Positions 20,450-20,935 of a stretch of DNA of 64,000 nt are shown piece after piece. Below the pieces are notes generated by a model. That model made no database searches. It saw only the letters and a list, made by a program, of their open reading frames with translations, and was not told the origin of the DNA. Every line of letters starts with the position of its first letter. Position 1 is the first letter of the stretch. A program made the position numbers and the translations under genes. The DNA comes from Schmidtea polychroa (Eukaryota): contig CM097886.1 of NCBI GenBank assembly GCA_044892525.1, positions 91,884,001-91,948,000 of the forward strand. Reading direction: 5' to 3'.

Positions 20450-20935
20450 ATGACGGAATTCGTAGACCAGATACAACAACTAATCAACTTCATAAACATC
20501 GAGAATGACTCCCTTAAAACGCTGACACAAAAGCGAGAAAGAATTAACATCATACTACTCCAAGCAATCGGGCAAACACCAGTCGTCCCCAACCACATGT
20601 TATTAGCCGCAGGACTAAGTCACCCAGATGGGAAGATAAACCCTGAAACCGTGTATCAATGGTATCAAGAGAGATTGAACCACCCAGCATTAAATCTTGA
20701 TTATCAACGTATAAAAGATCCATTAGGTACCATATCAGATACAATCGAGCGAAAAATACAAGAAAAACTGACCCTACTACGAACTTGTCTTGCTTGTAAA
20801 CTTCGTCCTATTCGCGTACTGTTCTTGCCATGTGGACACCTCAGTCACTGCGAAGAATGTGTGAACAACTTAAAACGATGCACGATATGTAAGCATGAGA
20901 TAAAAGAAACTCATATGGTTTATTATGGTGAATGA
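20450..20935 (+). CDS. IAP/MDM2-type C3HC4 RING finger protein (no BIR domain)
   Basis: C-terminal CLACKLRPIRVLFLPCGHLSHCEECVNNLKRCTICK. 133 of 161 aa identical to the copy B homologue (manual count). Confidence 0.88.
   Translation: MTEFVDQIQQLINFINIENDSLKTLTQKRERINIILLQAIGQTPVVPNHMLLAAGLSHPDGKINPETVYQWYQERLNHPALNLDYQRIKDPLGTISDTIERKIQEKLTLLRTCLACKLRPIRVLFLPCGHLSHCEECVNNLKRCTICKHEIKETHMVYYGE

Follow-up and report, generated by a model that had tools for sequence, protein, structure and literature searches.

The closest described system to the element studied here is Burro of dugesiid planarians, which, as far as the consulted part of PMC6431247 describes it, shares with this element a length of >30 kb, multi-kb LTRs, many copies, ankyrin repeats, a CCHC gag, a mononegavirus-like env between gag and pol, and TRAF/MATH cargo. 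The same part of that paper lists IAP, TRAF and BCL2-like genes among the cargo of Burro, and it names no separate RING gene ahead of gag. As described in the part of PMC13465017 consulted, the B-IAP of Burro1 (Lee et al. 2026 Dev Cell) aids planarian stem cell survival. Burro, its apoptosis/ubiquitin cargo and a role for B-IAP are already published; the small RING gene that we describe here between the primer-binding site (PBS) and gag, hereafter the leader RING, is undescribed as far as we found, our literature search having returned no account of Burro with a RING ORF preceding gag, with the proviso that Grohme 2018 and Lee 2026 may annotate it.

A RING gene between the PBS and gag

The window, a stretch of 64,000 nucleotides from Schmidtea polychroa (GCA_044892525.1, contig CM097886.1, forward-strand positions 91,884,001 to 91,948,000), holds element A and the beginning of element B, with the following features:

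16146-16149: target-site duplication TATC, ahead of the 5' LTR of element A
16150..20117, + strand: 5' LTR of element A, TG...CA, 99.8% identical to 43011-46976
20125..20142, + strand: PBS, 7 nt past the LTR end
20436..20447, + strand: putative 3' splice acceptor, T-run plus TAG, 2 nt ahead of the start codon
20450..20935, + strand: leader RING gene of element A, 161 aa, ATG 20450 to TGA 20935; helical bundle aa 1-110, C3HC4 RING aa 113-147, tail Tyr158
20786..20923, + strand: IAP/IDOL-class RING core through the tail tyrosine, ungapped alignment to cIAP1/2
21052..21057, + strand: AATAAA, candidate polyadenylation signal, 116 nt past the stop
23136..27818, + strand: gag part of the polyprotein, with Retrotrans_gag (PF03732) and two CCHC knuckles (PF00098)
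within 27832-30315: env-like fusion protein, mononegavirus-like, Monjiviricetes-type (PF24664)
within 31332-34142: PR-RT-RH-IN, by Pfam
38579..39967, + strand: TRAF gene of the element, RING...MATH, with no BIR gene behind it in the window's family
43011..46976, + strand: 3' LTR of element A, then the duplicated TATC
53590..57446, + strand: 5' LTR of element B; identity with the 3' LTR of the same element is 100% over 3858 nt
57789..58274, + strand: leader RING gene of element B

Element A spans 30.8 kb (16150-46976) with LTRs of ~4 kb, and runs in the order gag, env, PR-RT-RNaseH-integrase, ankyrin repeats and a separate TRAF gene. Given its length of >30 kb, multi-kb LTRs, gag-env-pol-ankyrin order and TRAF/MATH cargo, it is a Burro-type Ty3/gypsy element, an assignment made by architecture and not by match to the named Burro1-4 references; its PBS we take to be that of tRNA-Pro. 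The polyprotein of copy A is interrupted in several places and that of copy B is open for at least 3333 aa, and because the LTRs of element B are identical, the window's family has moved recently. Several further features were recorded in passing. An ORF of 249-262 aa inside the LTR (window 18810-19559, 45813-46418 and 56124-56912) matched no confident Pfam family and is kept between the subfamilies, with pN well below pS and synonymous sites saturated; ~1 kb between env and pol (30315-31332), found in copy A only and with its base skew reversed, is probably a secondary insertion; and the stretch from the RING ORF to gag contains a tandem array of 74-bp repeats (21493-21837 and 58844-59590) whose copy number differs between A and B. 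Three more 3' accessory ORFs at 40161-42769 matched no confident Pfam family, the one at 42128-42769 being the fastest diverging (40% aa identity A vs. B, dN/dS 0.35), and an intron-less 508-aa glycosyltransferase family 90 gene on the minus strand (8753-10279) is likely a host gene.

The leader RING ORF of element A starts 325 nt past the PBS (20125) and lies 2.2 kb ahead of gag (23136). The original prediction, made from the letters alone, had noticed here an intact 161-aa ORF in both copies, with RING ligands and C-terminal end conserved and flanks diverging, and this description holds: A and B share 133/161 aa (82.6%) and 398/486 nt with zero gaps, all eight RING zinc ligands are present (and invariant in 20/20 aligned versions), and the tail ETHMVYYGE is the same in both copies, as against 66% identity with 15 gap openings in the leader and 60% with 16 in the trailer. 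The identity of the flanks is about that of the third codon positions of the ORF (86/94/65% for positions 1/2/3). The HMM search that had been proposed as a check matched PF13920 (C3HC4 RING) at aa 111-153, with E 1.9e-11 for A and 3.4e-11 for B, and found no BIR (PF00653) in the 161-aa ORF. The absence of a BIR, likewise predicted, extends to the window and the continuation of element B, where tblastn with a 393-aa BIR+RING query returned RING parts only at E<1e-5, two matches in env being at chance level (E 0.19 and 0.89), and to the LTR plus leader, where a motif scan of three forward frames found none.

That the ORF is selected, as had been proposed, is borne out by a dN/dS (Nei-Gojobori) of 0.092 between A and B (bootstrap CI 0.05-0.16, dS 0.93), well away from 1, and of 0.07-0.19 in 9 window-type pairs; together with values of 0.15-0.20 in the third type and 0.07-0.21 in the Burro1-like type introduced below, these rates place all three types under purifying selection. 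Between A and B, dN/dS is 0.04 in the RING part and 0.12 in the N-terminal part (dN 0.04 vs. 0.11). A stop-free match was found in 144/150 best-scoring genomic copies of the window ORF, a top-ranked set and hence biased to intact copies. Judged by the A vs. B ratio plus these stop-free copies, the ORF is not a chance one. Synonymous divergence between A and B is unequal along the element (leader RING 0.93, gag 0.18, env 0.25, pol 0.42), a contrast suggestive of recombination of the LTR-leader block with the core.

Upstream of the ORF, the AG of the putative acceptor is invariant in 24/24 distinct window-type sequences, all of which have a T-run plus YAG 2 nt ahead of the ATG, with variable positions at -30 to -14; a similar AG occurs in the third type, and one lies directly at the ATG in the Burro1-like type. 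Since the phase of the acceptor differs between types (AG followed by ACATG vs. AG followed by ATG), a non-coding first exon is suggested. The leader holds 7 short upstream ATG frames, and a search across types found no conserved splice donor. Past the stop, AATAAA occurs within 250 nt in 39/40 copies, which in such AT-rich DNA is weak evidence for polyadenylation. According to the part of PMC8532177 consulted, BURRO1 transcripts rise on PIWI knock-down, a result that does not show the leader RING exon.

Spread of the leader RING and its independence from the BIR gene

The PBS 20-mer has 1044 exact genomic matches vs. 0 for the reversed control, and four extra 15-mer sites are further PBS-like sites. 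For a census less biased than one of top-ranked copies, we took the first 30 of the 1044 exact matches by position, and 23 of these 30 loci carry a leader RING homolog within 1.3 kb: 3 are of the window type, 13 are Burro1-like (2 of them frameshifted) and 7 belong to a third type. The PBS motif lies 244-339 nt upstream of the ORF in 37/40 fetched copies, with gag downstream in 18/20 copies that were fetched with 3 kb of 3' DNA. The third-type protein, of 159 aa, is ~43% identical to the window ORF where pol is 94% identical to that of the window's family; its elements have no BIR gene after TRAF, and we assign them on these sequences to the window's family. The Burro1-like protein, of 160 aa, is 27-28% identical to the window ORF over nearly its full length, and 150/150 of its best matches are stop-free. 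The leader RING is a standard, family-wide accessory gene of Burro elements. An ORF ahead of gag had originally been called unusual; with the gene at 23/30 PBS loci, and with cargo already known in Burro, this was overstated.

The remaining 7/30 PBS loci, which have no leader RING, share one LTR end. Two loci of this kind, examined at length (L123:3807 to L124:9374; L127:2746 to L128:9412), are pol-less Burro derivatives of ~15 kb with neither pol nor env, having LTRs of 1.5-1.6 kb, the same PBS and, in one copy, a 760-aa gag-like ORF.

A Pfam BIR search revealed a second high-copy family with a 392-393-aa BIR+RING gene right after TRAF and with MATH inside the polyprotein, where the window's family has neither BIR nor MATH. 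Burro1, in the description consulted (PMC6431247), has a BIR and has MATH inside the polyprotein, two features present in the second family and missing from the window's family; the second family probably fits Burro1, and its 393-aa BIR+RING gene the published B-IAP. Both Burro1-like elements that were fetched carry a 160-aa leader RING between PBS and gag plus the BIR+RING gene, and because the two coexist in the same element, the leader RING counts as a separate gene and not a cut-down B-IAP. The two have in common an element-borne IAP-class C3HC4 RING with a tail aromatic; they differ in that the likely B-IAP, of 393 aa, is BIR-bearing, comes after TRAF on the 3' side and retains CPxCR, whereas the leader RING, of 160 aa, has no BIR and lies 5' of gag.

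Two derivations from B-IAP were considered and rejected: truncation, as both genes occur together and the RING tree (where support is weak) does not place them in one group, and descent with a UBA remnant, as tblastn reaches aa 51 but profile comparison aligns the RING only, the similarity being confined to 46 columns.

Relatives of the Burro1-like leader RING were found in public contigs at 97% and 84% identity, and an exhaustive profile search added one further full-domain relative, P0006 (E 2.4e-25). When the 149 other hits, the Maverick-type RING described below and B-IAP were compared with the non-RING profile, only P0006 matched. In P0006 the leader-RING domain is divergent, breaks off past the sixth ligand and is joined to Burro gag, a fusion that may be a real splice or a gene-prediction join. 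A word-index protein search gave 0 matches among 35 candidates with the window protein as query, and only P0002 and P0003 among 1113 candidates of one length range with alignment A2.

Class, fold and residue pattern of the RING

The best PDB sequence matches of the RING are cIAP2, cIAP1, BIRC7, XIAP and IDOL. The AlphaFold2 model from a 13-sequence alignment (pLDDT 89, pTM 0.77; the other four models 60-75) has five helices over aa 2-110, the last a long helix entering the RING, and among known structures its RING comes closest to IDOL (Z 9.4, with an rmsd of 1.1 for 63 aligned residues) and BIRC7 (Z 9.1, with an rmsd of 0.9 for 57), along with many viral IAP and viral BIR-less RING proteins. 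The protein is thus predicted to be a Burro-specific helical bundle plus an IAP/IDOL-class RING. The designation IAP-type in the original prediction stands as a class; IAP ancestry does not follow from it, as a class match alone does not establish ancestry, and of the features that define an IAP (BIRC), the C-terminal IAP-class RING is present and the BIR domain is absent from the ORF, element A and element B. The N-terminal domain had no PDB sequence match at E 10; its single-sequence model is poor (pLDDT 59) and matches generic helical bundles only, at best with Z 8.2, rmsd 2.0 and 74 aligned. In the ESM Atlas the whole protein fell into generic PF13920 clusters, and a search with aa 1-108 gave no usable match.

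Ala115, Lys117, Thr145 and Lys148 align with Val573, Met575, Pro603 and Arg606 of cIAP1, and Tyr158 with Phe616. According to the part of PMC6349121 consulted, cIAP1 binds E2 via Met575 and the core around Val573 with Arg606 as linchpin, dimerises via pre-RING helix, RING and tail, and uses Phe616 to prime ubiquitin in trans; the more general RING rule, given in PMC8261083 and PMC12103069 as consulted, asks for an aliphatic in loop 1 ahead of the second ligand, a Pro in loop 2 and Arg as the linchpin, this Pro and Arg being widespread among RINGs though not found in all. We tallied these positions in 55 leader RINGs, all distinct and intact: 31 are of the window type, 13 of the third or an intermediate type and 11 Burro1-like. 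Left aside were duplicates, a copy interrupted by a stop, another that lacks a ligand, and 6/12 loci of one set that had no intact motif. On the dimer side, the tail Tyr is found in 54/55 and a hydrophobic L/M in 55/55 at the dimer-strand position, which we take to be that of V568 of cIAP2 in number and role. On the E2 side, the Met575 position is hydrophobic in 0/55 (K/R/H/N/E instead), the loop-2 Pro occurs in 1/55 and the linchpin Arg in 2/55. The Val573 position is aliphatic in 0/31 window-type versions (Ala/Ser/Cys/Tyr) and Ile in 22/24 of the other types. The linchpin position holds Asp in 11/11 Burro1-like and Lys in 27/31 window-type versions; Lys can serve as linchpin in some RINGs. 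The tally thus shows a conserved dimer side and an E2 side that is not conserved. Loop-2 Pro and linchpin Arg are both kept in 26/26 distinct B-IAP sequences and in 5/5 other genomic RING exons, presumed to be of the host. The degenerate pattern is not unique to the leader RING, since 26/122 database matches with a C-terminal RING, a query-biased set, share the loss of Pro and Arg. XIAP has Tyr at the linchpin position and, in the part of PMC6349121 consulted, catalyses E2~Ub discharge.

Possible roles and known counterparts

Starting from what was observed, namely where the gene lies, how its copies are spread, the selection on it, its domain class and residue pattern, and its independence of the BIR gene, we surmise that the leader RING is an E2-poor, dimer-competent partner, in the manner of MDMX, of an IAP-type ubiquitin ligase, a tentative reading to which we give a probability of roughly 0.45. 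The protein would be translated from a spliced LTR transcript with the acceptor just ahead of the ATG, and would dimerise in the way of IAP RINGs, through the RING, the helix ahead of it and the tail; its own E2 face being weak, it would form a heterodimer with a host IAP, or with B-IAP where present, in which its tail Tyr would prime the E2~Ub of the partner and its helical bundle would pick the target or location. The net effect would be that host IAP ligase activity is retuned or drained in element-expressing cells, with altered cell-death or NF-kB-type signalling there as the consequence. As the window's family has no BIR gene, the partner would have to be a host protein or come in trans, a point that counts against this reading. 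This reading is supported by the low dN/dS, the same place in three types and, ahead of a Burro gag, in the divergent P0006, the split between dimer-side and E2-side residues, the AlphaFold2 fold, the likeness to dimeric IDOL and BIRC7, the acceptor and the apoptosis theme of Burro. Counting against it are an XIAP that is active with a linchpin Tyr, the loop-1 Ile of the other types, Lys as a possible linchpin, the 26/122 database RINGs that look alike, the lack of a conserved donor and an N-terminal domain with no informative fold match. The original prediction had offered either a selected E3 ligase or a dominant-negative IAP dimerisation partner; a dimerisation partner fits the residues better than a stand-alone canonical E3, and a strict dominant negative, itself a variant of the partner reading, fits less well because the E2~Ub-activating tail aromatic is kept in 54/55.

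Much of the same evidence bears on a protein that would act by itself as a homodimeric E3 with a non-canonical E2 contact, like IDOL or the small viral RINGs, its helical bundle binding a host restriction or death factor for degradation. The eight ligands, central-helix Leu/Ile and tail Tyr are all kept, the nearest folds are active dimeric E3s and many viral BIR-less RINGs match; XIAP lacks the linchpin Arg, two of the three types keep the loop-1 Ile, and the N-terminal part changes at a higher rate than the RING, as could be the case for a region that binds substrate. However, hardly any of the 55 versions has the usual residue at three E2/Ub-contact positions, the window type departs from it at a fourth as well, the Burro1-like versions carry Asp at the linchpin, and B-IAP in the same elements retains the canonical residues; we regard an autonomous E3 as somewhat unlikely. 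It appears quite improbable that the protein has left the ubiquitin pathway altogether, with the RING serving as a zinc-bound dimerisation scaffold of an adaptor in the element's own cycle, be it in RNA handling, particle assembly or holding the element TRAF. A degenerate E2 face agrees with such a scaffold, as does the distribution of the gene: every pol-bearing type sampled carries it, the pol-less derivative (7/30 loci) lacks it in its leader, and by this pattern the gene tracks the replication machinery better than B-IAP does; but a non-autonomous element can drop any trans-acting gene, the tail aromatic is kept at the Ub-priming position (though it also aids dimerisation), and 43% aa identity where pol has 94% is a fast divergence like that of host-facing genes. 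Very improbable, in our view, is that the ORF is an exon of a longer product, either following an upstream coding exon or splicing onward into gag. An acceptor directly ahead of the ATG and the joining of a homologous domain to Burro gag in P0006 would suit this, but the acceptor stands in different phases in different types, 20/20 aligned versions share the Met, neither LTR nor leader has a BIR motif, stop codon and tail length are fixed, and P0006 may itself be a gene-prediction join.

The nearest in-genome relative of the RING is a 185-aa BIR-less RING ORF in a Maverick/Polinton-like element (L138:1314-9999, i.e. G000:C1:12671314 onward; fragment L127:2304-2711), which has PolB (PolB2) and an adenoviral-type protease nearby and occurs in at least 150 near-identical copies. 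This RING scores 55.6 bits with the leader-RING profile vs. 20-43 for B-IAP and presumed host RINGs, groups with the leader RINGs with support 84/88 (63 columns, with long-branch warnings), and shares their degenerate Lys/no-Pro/no-Arg/Tyr pattern; since the Burro bundle profile finds no match in its N-terminal part, however, shared ancestry is a lead only. Small RING proteins related to the Maverick-type RING were seen in public contigs (P0051, P0064, P0038). It is possible, though we hold it to be unlikely, that Burro and, separately, the Maverick-like element both encode a RING pseudo-ligase, present in many copies, by which host IAP dimers are hijacked in trans. If true, Burro would hold a two-part death-control kit, including a family-wide MDMX-like leader RING that would be older and more widespread than B-IAP and might protect host cells in families without a BIR gene.

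Both the element family and its link to apoptosis have been published, which limits the surprise. Beside B-IAP, the leader RING is another candidate effector and a more widely shared one, occurring in all three sampled pol-bearing types, including two without an IAP, in hundreds of mostly intact copies, and it offers a handle on how non-Burro1 families meet host cell death or ubiquitin signalling. If our reading of the residues holds, it would be a transposon-encoded pseudo-E3.

Compared with cIAP1, cIAP2, XIAP, BIRC7 and IDOL (MYLIP), the leader RING has the RING fold, pre-RING helix and tail aromatic in register; unlike them, it has no BIR, UBA, CARD or FERM, its E2/Ub contact residues are changed, and its N-terminal bundle is found in Burro records only. 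With the small BIR-less RING proteins of DNA viruses it shares small size and a C-terminal RING. MDMX (MDM4) binds E2 weakly, and we propose by analogy that the leader RING may share the mode in which MDMX acts with MDM2, that of a dimer-competent RING lending its tail in trans; their sequence similarity is weak (E 0.002-0.02), and the likeness is an analogy of mechanism, not whole-protein homology. The role of the tail in trans is described in the part of PMC6349121 consulted, and the same idea of an E2-poor partner has been raised for class VI TRIMs (PMC7752041).
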